IMG/VR virus record: IMGVR_UViG_3300045988_088004
From: a virus
DNA: 34,282 nt
Direction: 5' to 3' (one strand)
Part shown: piece by piece, positions 4,701-32,640 of the stretch
Position numbering within the stretch: position 1 is the stretch's first letter
Layout: the number at the start of each line of letters is the position of its first letter
Notes under the pieces: model-generated
What the model was told of the DNA's origin: nothing
The model's input: the letters and a program-made list of their open reading frames with translations, nothing else
The model's database searches: none
Translations under genes and position numbers: made by a program

Positions 4701-6056
4701 TTACGACCGAAAAACAAGAGTTATATTTAAGTCTTCGTCTATCGTGATATTCTTTATAACACTATTCCATAAAGCCCGCTTTTTTTCCTTTTCTAAATTG
4801 TTATAAATAGTCTTCCAGTCATTTACAAAAAACTTGTTAATATCTTTTATTTCTTTGTTAGAAGTTGTTAAGGCTTCTATTTTTTTTAATTCTTTTTCCA
4901 AGTCGTCGTATTCTATATCATAATCAGAAGCAGAGATCCGACCTTTACGAAACATATAATTTAGGTTATCAAGTTCTGTTTTAATGTCTTTTATTTGTTT
5001 TTTAAGCTTTTCTTTTTCAGGCTTCGGAAGTATTTCAACGTCTGTACGCACAGATGCAATATGCTTATTTAACAAGTCTTCTACGTTTTCTATTAAAAAC
5101 TTTTCTATCTTTTCTTCCGTTATTCCTTTTTTGAAACTACATAATTTAGTACTTTTATGTTTACCACAGACGTAGCTATAATATCTTTTTTTTCCGTCGT
5201 AGTATTTTCCAACAAAAGAAGACTTACATTCAGGACATTTAATCATACCAACAAATAAATATACATTTTTATTCTTCCTGACTTTTACATTGCCTTTTAT
5301 ATATTCCTGATTTAAAAGGTATTCTTTTTCTGTAATATAAGCTGGAGCATAATTATAATTATCTTTATATTTTCCAGTATATAAGTCACGTTTCAAGATC
5401 CGAGCATAAGTCCTATAGTCCTTTGTTAAATTGTATTTTTTGTTAATATATATGCAAGTGCTACGAATTGAACGATAAGTCGAAAAGTGATCGAAAATAT
5501 CATTTACAATAGCTTCGGTTTCTTTATCTTTGATTATTACTTTTTTTCCGTCTTTTTCACCAATTTTATAGCCAAAAGGGAGCGAGCCTGTAACGGCTTC
5601 ACCCTCACGTACTTTATACTCAAATACAGCTTTAATACGTTCGGATCCTCTATCTAATTCATGCTGGGCTAGTGACAATTTTAAATTAAATAAAAACATA
5701 CCGTTAGAAGTGGTAGTATCTACGTTTTCTTCTTTTATAGCTATCATGTCTGTATTATTCTGTTTTAATAATTGCAAAAGTTTATTAGCTTCTAACACAT
5801 TCCTAGAAAGTCTATCTATTCTGGTGAATAAAATAGCATCCAATTTAGGAAGATCATTTATCATTCTTTGCAGGTTAGGACGTTTCATGTTGGAAGCCGA
5901 ATAGCCTTCGTCTATGTATAAATCAATTAAGTTATGATTATTTTCATTACACCATTTTTCTATTTCTTCTATCTGGGCTTTGGTAGAGTATCCGAACTTT
6001 TTTTGTTCTTCATGGGATACTCTAACATAACCGCCTATTTTTAAAACTTTTTTCAA
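4701..6056 (-). CDS. int: Large serine recombinase (phage integrase)
   Basis: N-terminal resolvase catalytic domain (GGYVRVSHEEQ...DEGYSASN...IDRLSRN), then a recombinase domain and a Cys-rich zinc ribbon (CPECKS...C...C). The maximal ORF reaches 6071, but GGAGG at 6065-6069 favours the TTG start at 6056 (MKKVLKIGGY). Confidence 0.9.
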   Translation of the reverse strand: MKKVLKIGGYVRVSHEEQKKFGYSTKAQIEEIEKWCNENNHNLIDLYIDEGYSASNMKRPNLQRMINDLPKLDAILFTRIDRLSRNVLEANKLLQLLKQNNTDMIAIKEENVDTTTSNGMFLFNLKLSLAQHELDRGSERIKAVFEYKVREGEAVTGSLPFGYKIGEKDGKKVIIKDKETEAIVNDIFDHFSTYRSIRSTCIYINKKYNLTKDYRTYARILKRDLYTGKYKDNYNYAPAYITEKEYLLNQEYIKGNVKVRKNKNVYLFVGMIKCPECKSSFVGKYYDGKKRYYSYVCGKHKSTKLCSFKKGITEEKIEKFLIENVEDLLNKHIASVRTDVEILPKPEKEKLKKQIKDIKTELDNLNYMFRKGRISASDYDIEYDDLEKELKKIEALTTSNKEIKDINKFFVNDWKTIYNNLEKEKKRALWNSVIKNITIDEDLNITLVFRS

Positions 6057-6071
6057 AAAGAAAACCTCCAA

Positions 6072-17187: not shown

Positions 17188-17553
17188 ATGTATAAGAGTT
17201 GTACGAGATGCGGAAAAGTACACGATACGAACTACAAATGCAACCATAATAGATATAAAAAAGATACAGAAGCAAGAAAGCTAAGGCAAAAAAATATATG
17301 GCATACTAAGTCTGAGGAGATCAGAAAGAAAAGTAATTATCTTTGTAGTGTATGTAGAGAAGAAGGAAGATACATATACAAAGGACTAGAGGTACACCAT
17401 ATCACACCAATAGAAGAAGACAGAGACAGACTACTAGATAACTATAATCTAATATGTTTATGTAATTCCTGCCATAGATTAGCAGAATTAGGAAAAATTG
17501 ATAAAGATTATCTTTTTAAGTTAGCAAAGGAAAGGGAAAAAAATGATAAATAA
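17188..17553 (+). CDS. HNH endonuclease (packaging-associated type)
   Basis: CTRCGK...C, CSVCREEG...EVHHITPIEE...NYNLICLCNSCH. HNH proteins accompany HK97-type TerS/TerL in cos phages. Confidence 0.85.
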   Translation: MYKSCTRCGKVHDTNYKCNHNRYKKDTEARKLRQKNIWHTKSEEIRKKSNYLCSVCREEGRYIYKGLEVHHITPIEEDRDRLLDNYNLICLCNSCHRLAELGKIDKDYLFKLAKEREKNDK

Positions 17554-18268
17554 TTATAATGTGTATATGCATATATTTCCTAACCAAAAAAAATATATAG
17601 GAATAACTTGCAGAAACCCACTTAAAAGGTGGGGACATAATGGATACGGATATAGGTTGCAACCTAAAGTATATAATGCAATTTTAAAATATGGCTGGGA
17701 TAATATAGAACATAAAATATTATTTACTGATTTATCAAAAAAAGAAGCAGAACAAAAAGAAATAGAACTTATAGCAAAATACAAAGCTACTAATATTAGA
17801 TATGGTTATAATATCGAGAATGGCGGTAATACGATAGGTAAACACAATAGAGAAACAATACAAAAGATTAGAGAAGCAAATATAGGTAAATTAGTTAGTG
17901 ATATTACTAAGAATAAAATAAGTAATGCTAATAAGGGCAGAGTTATTACTGAAGAAACTAGACAAAAGTTAATAGAAGCAGGTAAAAAACCTAAAAGTGA
18001 AATAGGAAAGCAACATATAAGAGAAGCTAAATTAGGAGAAAAAAACCCTATGTATAATAAACCTAAAAGTAAAGAGACAATAAAAAAATATCAATTATCA
18101 AGAGGGACAAAGAAAGTAATTCAATATGACTTAGAAGGAAACATTATAAGAATATGGGACAGTACTTATGATGCAAGTAAAGAATTAAATATTTGTTTAA
18201 AAAACATAAGAAGAAGTTGTATATCTAAATATAATGCTGGAGGTTATAAGTGGTTATATGTTGACTAG
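17543..18268 (+). mobile_element. Free-standing GIY-YIG homing endonuclease gene (I-TevI-like, NUMOD3 repeats, C-terminal HTH)
   Basis: GIY-YIG core VYMHIF...KKYIGIT...RW...NIENGGN. There are four repeats of the type ET.QKI.EAN.GK. The C-terminal pattern is VIQYDLEGNIIRIWDSTYDASKELNI...I. Lower-GC codon style than its neighbours. Overlaps the HNH stop by 11 nt. Confidence 0.85.
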
Positions 18269-18496: not shown

Positions 18497-18700
18497 ATGA
18501 AGTTAAAAGTAGAATACCTACCTATAGACGAGATAAAACCATACGAGAATAATGCTAAGATACACACTCCAGAACAGATAGAGCAAATCAAAGCAAGTAT
18601 CCAGCAATTCGGAATGAATGATCCTATAGGGATATGGAGTAAAGAGAATATCATAGTAGAAGGGCATGGACGATTACTAGCGTGCCAAGAGTTAGGATAA
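18497..18700 (+). CDS. ParB-like nuclease N-terminal domain, 5' fragment of a frame-broken ParB-methyltransferase gene
   Basis: IDEIKPYENNAKIHTPEQIEQIKASIQQFGMNDPI...EGHGRLLACQELG then TAA. The sequence continues seamlessly in the -1 frame. Confidence 0.8.
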   Translation: MKLKVEYLPIDEIKPYENNAKIHTPEQIEQIKASIQQFGMNDPIGIWSKENIIVEGHGRLLACQELG

Positions 18701-19761
18701 AAGAGATACCAGTAATAAGACTGGACGACCTAACAGACGAGCAAAGAAAAGCCTATACGCTCGCACACAACCAATTGACAATGAATACAGGATTTGACTT
18801 AGATATTCTAAATCAGGAGCTAGCAGATATCAGCATAGATATGCAGGAGTTCGGATTTGAAGACATAAATAAAGACGATTTTAATATCGAGGAAGACGAC
18901 TTCGAGTTCAACGAAGAAGAAATACCTGAAGCCAAAGCGAAACGAGGGGAAATCTACAAATTAGGAGAACATATCCTGATGTGTGGAGATAGCACAGCTC
19001 GACAGGACGTGGAAAAACTACTAAATGGAAAAATAGCAGACTTAGTAGTTACAGATCCACCATATAACGTAGCGATTTCTAATAGTCAGGGAATGACAAT
19101 AGAAAACGATGATATGTCAGACGAGAGCTTCAGGAAATTTCTAAATAGTGCATTTGAAAACATGAGTGATAGCCTAAAAGAAGGCGGAGCGTTTTACGTT
19201 TGGTATGCTTCCAGAGAACATATAAACTTTGAATCAGCATTACTAAATAATAACCTAACAGTAAGACAACAGCTAATATGGGTAAAGAACTCGTTAGTAC
19301 TTGGTAGACAAGACTACCAGTGGAGACACGAACCATGCTTATACGGATGGAAAGACGGAGAAGGTCATTATTTCATATACGACAGGACACAAAGTACAGT
19401 AATGGAGCAAAAAGAAATCGATATAGATAAACTAAGCCCAGAAGAAAGCAAAGAATTATTAAAAAAAATATATTCAGAAATACCATCCACGATAATAAAA
19501 GAAAACAAGCCACAGAAGAATAACCTACATCCAACTATGAAACCAATAGAACTAATAGGAAAGCTAATACATAACAGCTCAGAAAAAGGACAAATAGTTC
19601 TGGATTTATTCGGTGGATCAGGAAGCACACTAATAGCCTGCGAGCAGTTAGGAAGAAAGTGCTACATGATGGAATACGATCCGATATACGTGGATGCAAT
19701 TATACAAAGATATGAAGAATTTACAGGAAAGAAAGCAGAACTAATAAGTAGGGGAGATTAA
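18682..19761 (+). CDS. DNA methyltransferase (N6A/N4C beta class, DPPY), 3' part of the ParB-MTase gene
   Basis: IKEIPVIRLDDLTDEQRKAYTLAHNQL (rest of the ParB domain), motif IV VVTDPPYNV and motif I LDLFGGSGSTLIACEQLGR. Confidence 0.85.
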   Translation: MPRVRIKEIPVIRLDDLTDEQRKAYTLAHNQLTMNTGFDLDILNQELADISIDMQEFGFEDINKDDFNIEEDDFEFNEEEIPEAKAKRGEIYKLGEHILMCGDSTARQDVEKLLNGKIADLVVTDPPYNVAISNSQGMTIENDDMSDESFRKFLNSAFENMSDSLKEGGAFYVWYASREHINFESALLNNNLTVRQQLIWVKNSLVLGRQDYQWRHEPCLYGWKDGEGHYFIYDRTQSTVMEQKEIDIDKLSPEESKELLKKIYSEIPSTIIKENKPQKNNLHPTMKPIELIGKLIHNSSEKGQIVLDLFGGSGSTLIACEQLGRKCYMMEYDPIYVDAIIQRYEEFTGKKAELISRGD

Positions 19762-19765
19762 TGAA

Positions 19766-20563
19766 ATGATAGAAAAAGTAAACCCAAGCCACCCAGATAA
19801 AGTGGCAGACAGAATAGCAGGAGCAATAGTTGACCTTGCTTATACAAAAGAAGAAAATCCAAAGGTAGCAGTAGAAGTGCTAATAGGACATGGAGATTGC
19901 AAGATTATAATAGAAACTTCTGTATATATAGAATATGAAGAAATAAATAAAATTGTTGAAAGAATAACTAACAACAAAAATTTAAATGTAGAAATAAACG
20001 AAGTAGCACAGGATGAACACTTAGCCAAAAATCAAAGTAAAGAAATAAGATGTGGAGATAATGGAATATTTAAAGGTGTACCATTAACAGGCAACGAAAA
20101 AATGATTAGCAGATTAGCAAAACAAATATATGATGAATTTCCTTATGATGGAAAATATATACTAACAGATGATAAATTTATATGTTGCCAAAGTAATGCA
20201 ACAGACCACGATTTAAAAAAACTAATAGGAGATAGTGAAGATTATATTTTTAATCCATTAGGTTATTGGACAGGTGGAACAGATGTAGATACAGGAGCGA
20301 CTAATAGAAAGTTAGGTTCAGATATGGCACAAAGTGTTACTGGTGGAGGACTTCACGGTAAAGATTTATCTAAAGCTGATGTATCAGTAAATATCTACGC
20401 ATTCTTAAAAGCTCAAAAAACAGGAGAAACAGTAGAACTATGCTGTGCAATAGGTGATGACACAATAGATGGTAAGCCTTATAGCGAAATAGTTGAAATA
20501 GCAAGAGATTATATAAACAAAGTCGGTGGCTTTGAGAAGTTCGCAGAGTGGGGATTATTTTAA
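19766..20563 (+). CDS. metK: Compact S-adenosylmethionine synthetase homologue (265 aa)
   Basis: SHPDKVADRIAGAIVD resembles MetK GHPDKIADQISDA. CGDNGIF resembles GAGDQG. GGTDVDTGATNRKLGSD resembles GGPMGDCGLTGRKIIVD. GGGLHGKDLSKADVS resembles GGGAFSGKDPSKVDRS. Confidence 0.8.
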   Translation: MIEKVNPSHPDKVADRIAGAIVDLAYTKEENPKVAVEVLIGHGDCKIIIETSVYIEYEEINKIVERITNNKNLNVEINEVAQDEHLAKNQSKEIRCGDNGIFKGVPLTGNEKMISRLAKQIYDEFPYDGKYILTDDKFICCQSNATDHDLKKLIGDSEDYIFNPLGYWTGGTDVDTGATNRKLGSDMAQSVTGGGLHGKDLSKADVSVNIYAFLKAQKTGETVELCCAIGDDTIDGKPYSEIVEIARDYINKVGGFEKFAEWGLF

Positions 20564-22656: not shown

Positions 22657-23727
22657 ATGATAAAACACGATAATATATTTTATGTGAGAAATATCCATGC
22701 AATAGGCGGAGTAGAAACGTACGTATACGAGCTAGCTAAAAAGTACAAAGACTACGATATAGCAGTAGTATGTAAGACTATAGCTCCAGAACAACTAAAA
22801 AGACTAAAAAAGTTCTGTAGAGTTTATATCCATAAAAACGAACAAATAGAATGTAAATTACTAATAACTAACTGGGATACGTCTATCATTAAATACGTAA
22901 ATAAAGAAGCTAAAGTATATACAGGACTACATACAGACTATAGTAATTCAACAGAGATACTAGGACTTCCTAAAGACGATCCGAGAATAACATATATCGG
23001 AATAACAGAAGACAGTAAAAAGAAGTTCGAAGATATAACAGGAATAAAAAGGACTATTCTATGTAGAAACCCTTTAGAATTGGAGGAAGATCCGCCAGTA
23101 CTAACACTAATGAGTGCAACTAGACTAAGCTCCATAAAAGGCGGAGATAGAATGCTAGCAATAGCAAACGAGCTAGATAGACAGGGTATAGATTATATAT
23201 GGCTACTATATACTACAGACGAATATCAGAGCAACCCAGTATGGAAAAATAAAAACGTAATACACATGAACAATAGATTAGATTTAGGTAAGTTTATGAG
23301 AAAAGCAGACTGGATAATTCAGCCGTCAATATGCGAAGGAGATAGTTACACACTAAAAGAAGCACTATATCGAGGAGTACCAGTAGTAGTATGCGAACTA
23401 CCATACTTTAAAGAGATAGGAATAAAAGACGGAGAAAATGCTTTATTTTTAAAAGAAGACAGTAGCAACGTAGAAGAAGTAGTAAAGAAAATGAAAAAAC
23501 CGCTAAAGTTCAAATTCGAGCCAGTAAAAGATGGATACGATAAACTACTAGCAAAAGGTAAAAGCATATATCAGCAGGAATTAAAAACAATGGTAGAAGT
23601 ACAATGTATAAACAAATACCACGACTTAGAACTAAAGAGACTAATAACTCCAGAAGATAAACCATACAAAGTAAATAAAATAAGAGCAGAAGAACTAGAA
23701 GAATTAAATCTAGCAGTAAGGAGGTAA
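22657..23727 (+). CDS. GT4-family (GT-B, retaining) glycosyltransferase with a C-terminal ~45-aa domain duplicated in the next ORF
   Basis: RBS taggaggg. IGGVETYVYELAK N-terminal half. The C-terminal half carries E-x7-E: PSICEGDSYTLKEALYRGVPVVVCELPYF...GENALF. Confidence 0.8.
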   Translation: MIKHDNIFYVRNIHAIGGVETYVYELAKKYKDYDIAVVCKTIAPEQLKRLKKFCRVYIHKNEQIECKLLITNWDTSIIKYVNKEAKVYTGLHTDYSNSTEILGLPKDDPRITYIGITEDSKKKFEDITGIKRTILCRNPLELEEDPPVLTLMSATRLSSIKGGDRMLAIANELDRQGIDYIWLLYTTDEYQSNPVWKNKNVIHMNNRLDLGKFMRKADWIIQPSICEGDSYTLKEALYRGVPVVVCELPYFKEIGIKDGENALFLKEDSSNVEEVVKKMKKPLKFKFEPVKDGYDKLLAKGKSIYQQELKTMVEVQCINKYHDLELKRLITPEDKPYKVNKIRAEELEELNLAVRR

Positions 23728-29934: not shown

Positions 29935-30939
29935 ATGGCTAGCTTTGGAGGATCAATAAAACTAACAGGCGCAGACGAGTATAAGAACGCATTAAAGCAA
30001 ATATCACAGAGCTTACGAGAAACTGGATCAGAACTAACGGCCGTAGCTAGTAGATATGATAAGAACGATAGCTCATTATCTACATTAAAGGCAAAAACTA
30101 CAGAAATGACTAGCGTATTATCAAAGCAAAATCAAGCCTACCAGCAATTAAAGAGTGCATACGATACTTTTAGTGCTAAAGTAAGCCAGCAGGCACAGGC
30201 ACACGATAAACTAGTTCAAACATACGAAAAAGAAAAGCAAGAATTAGAGAATATCCGTAAAGCATCTGGAGAAAGTTCGCAAGCCTTTCAAAACCAGCAG
30301 GCTAAAGTAAACGATCTAGCTAGTGCAGTAGCTAAAAGTTCTCAAAATATGAACGAAAACCAGATAGCACTAAGCAAAATGAAAACACAGCTAAACCAAG
30401 CCGAGACAACAGTAAATAAAACAACTAAAGAAATAGAGGAATTAGGTAATGCAACCGAAGAAAGCGGAGAAAAAGCCAAAAAAGGTGGCGAAGGATATAC
30501 AGTATTTAAGAATATTCTAGCTAATTTAGGTACTCAGGCTATAAACAGCTGTATAAATGGACTAAAGTCTTTAGGTGGAGCATTTATAAACGTAGGAAAG
30601 CAAGCCCTAGCAAGCTACGGAGAGTTCGAACAGCTAAAAGGCGGAGTAGAAACACTATTTAAAGATAGTGCAGATACAATACTAGAGTATTCACAAAACG
30701 CATATATGACCGCTGGAATGAGTGCTAACGAATATATGAGTACCGTAACTAGTTTTTCAGCATCTTTAATACAGTCTTTAGGCGGAGACACGGAAAAAGC
30801 CGTAGAATACTCAGATAGAGCTATTACAGATATGTCAGATAACGCTAATAAAATGGGTACTTCTATGGAAATGATCCAAAATGCTTATCAGGGCTTTGCA
30901 AAATCTAATTACACAATGCTGGATAACTTAAAATTGGGT
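29935..30939 (+). CDS. Tape measure protein, exon 1
   Basis: Coiled-coil N-terminus ending ...NYTMLDNLKLG. The apparent stop at 30940 is the first intron codon. Confidence 0.85.
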
Positions 30940-31203
30940 TAACAAAATAGCTCAAGTAAAACCTCGTGAAAACGGTGAAACTCTCACGTAGACAATACCG
31001 TGCGAAGCCTAAAATTACAAAATATTGACAATTCAAAAAAGTAATTTTAGGAACGTGTAACGACTATCCCGAAAGGGAGTACACTCAAGCGAGTGGAAGT
31101 GCGAGGAACTCGAAAGAGTTAAGAGATAGTCTACTCTATATGGCGACATATAGCAGTTCATAAGAGAACGGTACGAAATTAGCGACTTCGTGTGAATGCA
31201 AGG
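30940..31203 (+). ncRNA. Group I intron (264 nt, no ORF)
   Basis: Removing it joins ...MLDNLKLG to YGGTKGEMERLIADANK in frame. Exon 1 ends in U and the intron ends in G. Candidate helices: P1 ttgggt (30934-30939) with gctcaa (30950-30955, U.G at the splice site); P3 cctcg/cgagg (30962-30966/31102-31106); P6 11-bp stem (31008-31018/31041-31051); P7 gacta/tagtc (31062-31066/31127-31131); P7.1 tccc-gaaa-ggga; P7.2 cactc-aagc-gagtg; P8 aactc-gaaa-gagtt; J8/7 aagaga; P9 ctatatg-gcga-catatag. Confidence 0.8.
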
Positions 31204-32640
31204 TATGGTGGTACTAAAGGCGAAATGGAACGACTAATAGCAGACGCAAATAAAGTAAAAGAAGCTAACGGAGAAATGGCTAACCTATCTATAGACAGTT
31301 TCGCAGACGTAACAGAAGCAATACATATTATCCAAACAGAAATGGGTATAACAGGTACTACTTCTAAAGAAGCAGGAAGAACTATTCAAGGATCTGTAAA
31401 AGCCATGAAGTCAGCATGGAGCAACCTACTAACAAAACTAGGTGATGGATCAGCAAATATAGAAGATTTAGTACGTAATTTAATGCTTACTATCGCAGGA
31501 GACGGAACAGAAAATAACTTAGGAGTATTAGGAAACGTAATGCCAGCCGTACAAAGAATATCAGAGGGTATAATGAATGCTTTACCGCAATTATTAAACG
31601 GTATTATTTCAGTATTACCTCAATTCTTAGAAGCTGGAGTAAATATAATTAACGGCCTAGTAACAGGTATTCAACAAAATATGCCAGCTATAATGTCAGC
31701 TACTATGCAGATCATAAATACCCTACTAACTACTATCATAAATAACCTACCTAAAATACTACAAATGGGAATACAAGTAATAGTATCACTAGTACAGGGA
31801 ATAGCTCAGCAACTACCTACACTAATACCGCAAATGGTAGAGACAGTAATAACAATAGTAGAAACTTTAATAGATAACATAGATTTAATAATTGACGCAG
31901 GAATACAGCTAATTATAGGCCTAGCCGAAGGCTTAATAGAAGCACTACCACAGCTGATAGATAAAATACCTATCATAATAGATAAATTAGTAGAAGCCAT
32001 TACGAATAACCTACCTAAGATAATCGAAATGGGTATAACTTTAATAGTTAAACTAGCCGAAGGTTTAATAAAGGCTATACCGCAACTAGTAAGCAAGATA
32101 CCGCAGATTATAAGCTCATTAGTAAATGGAATAGCAAGCTATTACTCTAAAATCTTTAGTGTAGGTGGAGAATTACTAGGAAAAGTAAAAGATGGTATCA
32201 TGAGCGGAATATCAGGAATGCTAGATGTAGGTAAAAATCTAGTTCAGGGATTATGGAATGGTATCGATAACGCTAAAGACTGGGTACTAGATAAAATTAA
32301 AGGTTTCGGGGAGTCTATAGTAGATGGAATTAAATCGTTCTTCGGGATCAACTCACCATCAACTTTATTTAGAGACCAAGTAGGTAAAAACCTAGCACTA
32401 GGTGTAGGAGAAGGTTTTTCAGACGAAATGGCTAACGTAACAAACGAGATGCAGAACGCTATTCCTAACAGCTTTGATACAGACGTAAACGTAGGAACTA
32501 CAACTACAGGAATGAATAATAATTACTTTAATATAGTAGACGCATTTAAAGAAGCACTATCAGAAATGAAAATAGAATTAGACGACGAAGTAGCAGGACG
32601 CTTCGTAGAGAATACAATAACAAACGCTATATATAACTAG
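31204..32640 (+). CDS. Tape measure protein, exon 2
   Basis: Starts YGGTKGEMERL.... Has a long hydrophobic LPxL/LPKI repeat region typical of tape measure proteins. The track ORF's GTG start at 31192 lies inside the intron. Confidence 0.85.
   Translation, partial: YGGTKGEMERLIADANKVKEANGEMANLSIDSFADVTEAIHIIQTEMGITGTTSKEAGRTIQGSVKAMKSAWSNLLTKLGDGSANIEDLVRNLMLTIAGDGTENNLGVLGNVMPAVQRISEGIMNALPQLLNGIISVLPQFLEAGVNIINGLVTGIQQNMPAIMSATMQIINTLLTTIINNLPKILQMGIQVIVSLVQGIAQQLPTLIPQMVETVITIVETLIDNIDLIIDAGIQLIIGLAEGLIEALPQLIDKIPIIIDKLVEAITNNLPKIIEMGITLIVKLAEGLIKAIPQLVSKIPQIISSLVNGIASYYSKIFSVGGELLGKVKDGIMSGISGMLDVGKNLVQGLWNGIDNAKDWVLDKIKGFGESIVDGIKSFFGINSPSTLFRDQVGKNLALGVGEGFSDEMANVTNEMQNAIPNSFDTDVNVGTTTTGMNNNYFNIVDAFKEALSEMKIELDDEVAGRFVENTITNAIYN

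Follow-up and report, generated by a model that had tools for sequence, protein, structure and literature searches.

The interrupted tape-measure gene

The tail tape-measure (TMP) gene of the virus in IMG/VR record IMGVR_UViG_3300045988_088004 is interrupted by 264 nt at positions 30940-31203 of the window, by which we mean the whole 34,282-nt stretch of DNA that was analysed. The ORF list gives two plus-strand ORFs in the TMP region, at 29935-30942 (335 aa) and 31192-32640 (482 aa), and the stop of the first is a TAA made of bases 1-3 of the interruption (30940-30942). The original prediction, which described two TMP ORFs split by 264 nt containing in-frame stops, was correct in its coordinates and in its statements about the sequence. 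It was also right that the interval lacks a homing endonuclease, as no ORF of more than 43 aa lies inside 30940-31203 on either strand.

With 30940-31203 removed, the Gly codon GGT is followed in frame by the Tyr codon TAT (...NYTMLDNLKLGYGGTKGEMERLIADANK), and the join of 30939 to 31204 gives a fused TMP of 813 aa that reads ...NYTMLDNLKLG|YGGTKGEMERLIADANK. Exon 1 (29935-30939, plus strand; 335 codons) ends ...NYTMLDNLKLG and is defined by the ORF list and PHROG tape-measure profiles, and exon 2 (31204-32640, plus strand; 478 codons plus stop) starts YGGTKGEMERL and is defined by PHROG profiles and an alignment with the sister phage L206. The junction peptide of a spliced TMP would span …LDNLKLGYGGTK…, and 31203 is the sole position for the terminal G (omega-G) that preserves the reading frame. 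A single fused product had been anticipated at about 812 aa; the single protein stands, and its length is 813 aa.

Both ORFs match PHROG tape-measure families at adjoining profile positions, with phrog_991 ending at 484 and resuming at 486, and phrog_58 ending at 465 in the first ORF and resuming at 474 in the second when the ORFs are searched separately. The fused protein yields a single PHROG stretch over residue 335/336, covering residues 4-783 for phrog_58 and residues 145-376 for phrog_6900.

The window is a segment of a temperate siphovirus genome. It encodes a serine recombinase (4701-6071, minus strand) and a CI-like repressor, as well as SSB, DnaD-like replication genes, a DNA methylase, TerL, portal, the major capsid protein and tail genes. 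The major capsid protein shares ~60% identity with its counterparts in Lactobacillus delbrueckii phages, and no close cultured relative emerged from a megablast comparison of 24.8 kb of the window with INPHARED, which matched the intron core only. No tRNAs were found in the window. The late region holds two unusual passenger genes (19766-20563 and 22657-23727); one of these ORFs matches only the S-adenosylmethionine synthetase N-terminal domain, and the other, an insertion between the genes for the large terminase and the portal, resembles group-1 glycosyltransferases.

Uninterrupted relatives

Comparison with intron-less TMP alleles, which had been proposed as a check, fixes the junction. Orf843 of Lactococcus phage phiLC3 is uninterrupted across it (...NYTMLDNLKLGYGGTKEEMQRL...), as are 79 of the 80 nearest IMG/VR relatives of exon 1, the remaining one (L025) carrying a 244-nt ORF-less intron. 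The string …NLKLGYGG… is contiguous in 108 of the 120 top database hits for the fused protein, and the full-length matches are mostly ~800-840 aa long with at most 84% identity and mostly 100% query coverage. The motif rebuilt by the in-frame fusion, which the original prediction had taken to be conserved in tape-measure proteins, is therefore one that is contiguous in >100 uninterrupted TMPs.

At the DNA level, an intron-less sister phage (L207; 34,158 bp) is 88% identical to the window, with an alignment that stops at window position 30941, and the alignment with L206 picks up again exactly at 31204. A record from another sample (L205) is 100% identical to the window over 5.9 kb, intron included, and represents the same phage; additionally, the exon-1 protein is present on several contigs.

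Assignment to group I introns

The interval matches the Rfam group I model RF00028 (Intron_gpI) at 57 bits, above the gathering cut-off of 50 (E = 6.9e-14), over window positions 30930-31153 in a cmscan of the slice 30800-31350, so that the assignment originally suggested holds at the curated threshold. The match is full-length (model positions 1-253 of 253). Its alignment has U30939 facing G30950 at the P1 terminus, places P3, P4, a minimal P5, P6, P8 and P9, gives AAGAGAUAGUC as the J8/7-P7 string, and inserts, after P7 and ahead of the P3 3' strand, 31 nt that correspond to P7.1/P7.2. This Rfam support comes from one permissive small-slice search, the bit score of which is nonetheless above the curated cut-off. 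The match was obtained only with the 551-nt slice and was lost by Infernal speed filters in scans of 3.5-kb slices and of the whole window, the latter at both gathering and E-value thresholds. As a 3.5-kb positive control also gave nothing, we treat the negative large scans as filter artefacts that are uninformative on other introns in the window.

All elements of the ribozyme lie on the plus strand. P1 pairs the final six exon bases, TTGGGT (30934-30939), with the internal guide GCTCAA (30950-30955), where G30950 pairs with U30939, the splice-site U of the U•G wobble; Rfam alignment and covariation both support the exon strand. P10 could form between ATA at 30947-30949 and the exon-2 TAT, a weak pairing of 3 bp read from the sequence only. 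P2 is absent from the window intron. P3 pairs CCTCGTG (30962-30968) with TGCGAGG (31100-31106; covariation), P4 (30972-77/30996-31001; Rfam alignment and covariation) spans 30972-31001 and encloses a minimal 3-bp P5 (30982-84/30990-92), and P6 (31008-31051) is an 11-bp stem (31008-18/31041-51) whose 22-nt loop includes TTGACA.

In the 3' half, the P7 strands GACTA (31062-31066) and TAGTC (31127-31131) form a pseudoknot with P3, and the hairpins P7.1 (TCCC-GAAA-GGGA, 31067-78) and P7.2 (CACTC-AAGC-GAGTG, 31082-95), both supported by covariation, follow the first of these strands. P8 (AACTC-GAAA-GAGTT, 31107-31120; Rfam alignment and covariation) leads into J8/7 and the P7 3' strand, AAGAGATAGTC (31121-31131), the catalytic core signature identified by Rfam alignment and motif search; a search for AAGATATAGTCY with at most one mismatch returned a single match in the window, at these same positions. 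P9 (CTATATG-GCGA-CATATAG, 31136-31153; Rfam alignment and covariation) is followed by two 3' peripheral hairpins found by de novo RNAalifold, GTTC/GAAC (31156-59/31166-69) and ACGAA/TTCGT (31173-77/31187-91), the second with the conserved loop ATTAGCGAC. The loops of P7.1 (GAAA), P8 (GAAA) and P9 (GCGA) are of the GNRA type. The terminal G (31203) at the 3' splice site is G in 42 of 42 aligned homologues, where it precedes a TAT or TAC Tyr codon.

Covariation was assessed on a structure alignment of 42 distinct ORF-less copies at the same site, the window copy included. RNAalifold, run unguided, recovered P1, P3-P6, P7.1, P7.2, P8, P9 and the two 3' hairpins, 39 of the 62 pairs showing compensatory changes when the P7 pseudoknot is not included. 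Once P7 is included, standard pairs form in 98.3% of cells, and double changes are seen in 40 of the 64 pairs. Controls in which the 3' partners were slid by 1-3 columns left 30-41% of cells paired, and the observed values were matched by 0 of 500 shuffles on four of five measures and by 17 of 500 for further pair types.

The changes are spread over the fold. Four of the six P1 pairs have compensatory changes, and exon and guide covary as CTGGGT/GCTCAG, CTCGGT/GCCGAG, TTGGGT/GCTCAA and CTAGGT/GCCTAG. Exon base -1 is T in every intron-bearing allele, and the corresponding Gly codon of empty alleles is often GGC, GGG or GGA. At the central P3 pair, 26 sequences have C-G, 13 have A-U and 3 have U-A. 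P7 pairs in 100% of cells, and one double change (A-U to G-C) occurs there, in two sequences; double changes occur in 4 of 5 pairs of P7.2, 5 of 5 of P8 and 7 of 7 of the last 3' helix. By comparison, the minimum-free-energy fold of the single sequence yields local hairpins with z = -3.96, and the opposite strand folds as well (z = -3.95); thus, thermodynamic stability alone is non-discriminating.

Much of the architecture had been anticipated. The boundary features named in the original prediction (U30939 paired with G30950 of the guide GCTCAA, and G31203 as the final intron base) are all present, the GNRA-type loops and the J8/7-P7 signature were found, and the covariance folding that it proposed, carried out here on homologues, supports P1, P3-P9 and P7.1/P7.2. 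The core helices that it listed are confirmed in their order, and to that list we add the short P5 and the two hairpins after P9 (31156-69 and 31173-91). Subgroup IA is defined by P7.1 and P7.2, which follow P7 and precede the P3 3' strand (PMC3984707), and the presence of both hairpins, with covariation, agrees with the predicted subgroup. A finer placement in IA2, by analogy with other phage introns, would be a guess.

The same data bear on the idea of a different kind of insertion, be it a small mobile element, a gene for an sRNA, or a signal for recoding by frameshift or bypass. The record of Streptococcus phage MissG1 labels the homologous stretch just 'ncRNA', which would suit such an origin. 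However, the group I covariance model matches the interval along the entire model, the pseudoknotted core is backed by covariation, direct or inverted terminal repeats are absent, and the boundaries follow group I splice rules. We give a non-intron insertion next to no weight and regard it as effectively refuted by the RF00028 match and covariation. Together with the absence of the interval from intron-less relatives, these comparative results make it very probable that 30940-31203 (plus strand; 264 nt, no ORF) is genuinely a self-splicing intron of group I, with IA-type architecture, in the TMP gene of a temperate siphovirus.

Predicted splicing of the tape-measure transcript

Family membership suggests that the window intron would be removed by two-step transesterification. 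The transcript would fold into the P1-P9 core, in which the guide GCUCAA would pair with the exon end UUGGGU and present the U30939•G30950 wobble. Exogenous guanosine, bound in P7, would then attack after U30939, and the freed exon 3'-OH would attack after G31203, so that the joined exons form an mRNA encoding a single TMP of 813 aa. On unspliced RNA, the intron-initial TAA would halt ribosomes at the splice site and thus should keep them from unfolding the ribozyme. In-frame stops near the 5' splice site are considered an aid to the folding or splicing of bacterial group I introns (PMC3984707). As P5 has 3 bp and P10 ~3 bp in the window copy, splicing efficiency might be below that of its relatives.

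These minimal P5 and P10 helices, the lack of an endonuclease gene in the intron and the two ORFs of 335 and 482 aa given by gene callers could also be read as signs of a decayed, non-splicing relic, with the TMP either a broken pseudogene in a defective prophage or made as two separate polypeptides. Yet all core helices, the U•G pair, the terminal G and the J8/7-P7 core are intact in the window copy, and the remaining genome is that of a complete, syntenic phage. Exon 2 has no plausible start, since the GTG at 31192 is intronic and lacks a ribosome-binding site; thus, a functional TMP needs splicing. The recurrence of the intron-bearing 5.9-kb segment, without a single difference, in an independent sample, the several contigs with the exon-1 protein and the unbroken junction region in 108 of the top 120 protein matches also argue against decay. 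We consider a relic very unlikely, and an active intron remains our preferred reading.

A widespread intron lineage at one site

Retrieval by the conserved P3-P4 motif AAACCTNGTGAAAACGGTGRAAC returned at least 119 IMG/VR loci, at least 101 of them at the …MLDNLKLG| site. Both ends could be resolved for 85 same-site copies, of which 41 are short and ORF-less (244-341 nt). The other 44 are long, at 407-928 nt, and almost all of these measure 794-928 nt; those long copies that were examined have an HNH ORF in P6. Thus, the HNH ORF is not universal in this r1t-type lineage, as it is missing from 41 of the 85 resolved copies.

Named phages with an intron at the same codon boundary include Lactococcus phage r1t (928 nt; the HNH gene is ORF41, between ORF40 and ORF42) and Streptococcus phages Javan520 (919 nt; HNH gene in P6), MissG1 (275 nt; ORF-less, annotated only 'ncRNA') and Javan271 (298 nt; ORF-less, and the second intron there, downstream of another). 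The window intron is 75-84% identical to those of r1t and its relatives by blastn, and AAACCTNGTGAAAACGGTGRAAC is common to them. A search of the window with nhmmer profiles of the 5' and 3' cores gave no second family copy.

Probable loss of the endonuclease gene and possible routes of mobility

Among the copies that were fetched, the closest to the window intron are two of 794 nt (L179 and L177) with an HNH ORF in the P6 loop; their identity to it is 84% in the last 160 nt and 79% in the first 85 nt. The P6 stem is homologous, reading TTTAAATTA/TAATTTAAA in L179/L177 and CCTAAAATTAC/GTAATTTTAGG in the window. In the two long copies the P6 loop starts TTGACA-17 nt-TAAAAT, followed by the HNH ORF; the 22-nt P6 loop of the window has TTGACA at 31024-31029, matching the -35 box of this HNH promoter, and neither a -10 box nor a complete promoter is left in the window intron. 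The TTGACA at 31024-31029 is probably the scar of an endonuclease-gene deletion. With nearest-neighbour similarity and the 6-nt promoter remnant giving the direction, we lean towards loss of the gene by deletion rather than its gain by relatives. If the gene was lost, the intron would be inherited vertically, or copied only with a related endonuclease-encoding intron in the same cell.

The window also encodes free-standing endonucleases. A 241-aa ORF (17543-18268) is a GIY-YIG protein with NUMOD1 and NUMOD3; its score for TIGR01453, 'group I intron endonuclease', is 63 bits (cut-off 56), and this ORF overlaps the end of the gene for a 121-aa HNH protein (17188-17553). A 414-nt non-coding gap follows the GIY-YIG gene, ahead of the DNA methylase gene (18682-19761), and a low-sensitivity search detected no hidden intron near the GIY-YIG gene.

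Collaborative homing, in which the phage's own GIY-YIG or HNH protein would cut the intron-less TMP gene at ...GATAACTTAAAATTRGGT|TATGGTGGTAC..., would give this intron a means of spread, and the TIGR01453 match and the NUMOD1 and NUMOD3 domains fit such a role. A collaborating endonuclease gene is expected beside its target gene, as in described cases, but the GIY-YIG gene is not adjacent to the TMP gene, lying 12.7 kb upstream. The 121-aa HNH gene is ~13.4 kb upstream of the intron, with nothing to tie it to the TMP site, and the endonucleases of this intron lineage are of the HNH type inside P6, not GIY-YIG. Thus, although collaborative homing is documented in other phages (PMC3984707), the mobilisation in trans that the original prediction had thought conceivable found no support here, and we hold it to be highly improbable. 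Deletion of a resident HNH gene remains the reading that we favour for the ORF-less state.

An insertion hot spot in the tape-measure gene

The coding stretch for NYT-M-LD-NLKLG-YGG (window 30918-30939) holds three intron insertion sites within 22 nt, as seen at window 30918-30939, L206 2680-3540, L004 (Javan271) 1620-2520, L099, L104, L110 and others. The first site, ACGAT|GTTAGAT, contains a different, unrelated group I intron with an HNH_3/NUMOD4 gene in L206, a 90%-identical sister, and in Javan271. It lies 7 nt upstream of the second, ATGTTGGAT|AAC, which is occupied in at least 15 IMG/VR copies, those listed all ORF-less and 260-266 nt long. The third, TTGGGT|TAT, is used by the window and r1t. 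In Javan271 the first and third sites are both occupied, and a 22-nt micro-exon separates the two introns.

The sister clade at ATGTTGGAT|AAC (among its members L099, L104, L110, L128, L130, L159 and L174) is inserted in the same gene 15 nt upstream of the site of the window intron, and its 5' end (TAACAAAATAG…) is nearly as in the window subclade. Its guide is GTTCAA rather than GCTCAA and its exon end TTGGAT rather than TTGGGT, which amounts to one matching change. This site shift with a compensating guide change is compatible with a reverse-splicing-type relocation. That the ribozyme lineage moves without its own endonuclease, perhaps via RNA-guided reverse splicing, seems to us a rather unlikely proposition. 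If ORF-less copies do relocate or spread by reverse splicing, the 22-nt segment would be a natural test bed.

The 812-aa protein P0044 has N- and C-terminal parts nearly identical to those of the window TMP, with a divergent module (…YLDNLNIGIKGTKEG…) in place of the intron-site region (window TMP residues ~225-390). This module would mark a recombination mosaic boundary at the homing site.

Implications for annotation

The TMP should be annotated as one 813-aa spliced product and not as the two genes (335 and 482 aa) that gene callers give, and many "split" TMP genes in phage catalogues may likewise be intact. Routine phage-sized Rfam scans miss this above-threshold intron, and thus the family is probably under-annotated. 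The context is of modest interest, with a three-site hot spot within 22 nt and a near-equal mix of endonuclease-containing and ORF-less copies.

Comparison with known introns

By its sequence, the window intron is one more copy of the known and abundant r1t-type TMP intron family. The original prediction was right about its identity as a group I intron and did not recognise its membership in this lineage. A passage in PMC4177764, citing van Sinderen et al. 1996, states that r1t carries a group I-like intron. With an r1t-type TMP intron known at the exact gene position since 1996 and abundant in public phage data, we regard the window intron as an ordinary one of low novelty.

The r1t intron shares with that of the window an identical site (…MLDNLKLG|YGGTK…), ~78-81% identity over both core halves, and the helix set P1, P3-P9, P7.1/P7.2 and 3' hairpins. 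It differs in its length of 928 nt, in the 186-aa HNH ORF and promoter in its P6 loop, and in its larger P5 and P7.1, whereas the window intron has 264 nt and no ORF, starts with TAA, and has minimal P5 and P7.1. MissG1, Javan271, L025 (244 nt) and ~40 others share the window's site and lineage and are also without an endonuclease gene; at 244-341 nt, these ORF-less copies bracket the 264 nt of the window intron. Over the whole intron they are 67-75% identical to it, P7.1 is larger in most of them, and the sole copy with the same sequence as that of the window is in L205, the same phage.

More distant relatives occupy other genes. By blastn, the 3' core of the window intron (31042-31198) has matches of 75-83% identity in the genomes of Staphylococcus, Enterococcus, Klebsiella and Bacillus phages, some of these matches being annotated Intron_gpI. 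The introns of Staphylococcus Kayvirus/Twort-like phages and of T7-like Klebsiella phages, as well as the td, nrdB and nrdD introns of phage T4, belong to subgroup IA and have P7.1/P7.2, as in the window; however, they lie in other genes (DNA polymerase, helicase, ribonucleotide reductase and others), and most have P2 and longer peripheral domains. The intron of Foley et al. 2000 is reportedly a group IA intron in a phage late gene from a low-GC Gram-positive host, occurring with an endonuclease ORF or in shortened form; it is said to be polymorphic among close relatives, in a host gene and at a site that differ from those of the window. Passages in PMC5601072 and PMC3952083 discuss that intron.
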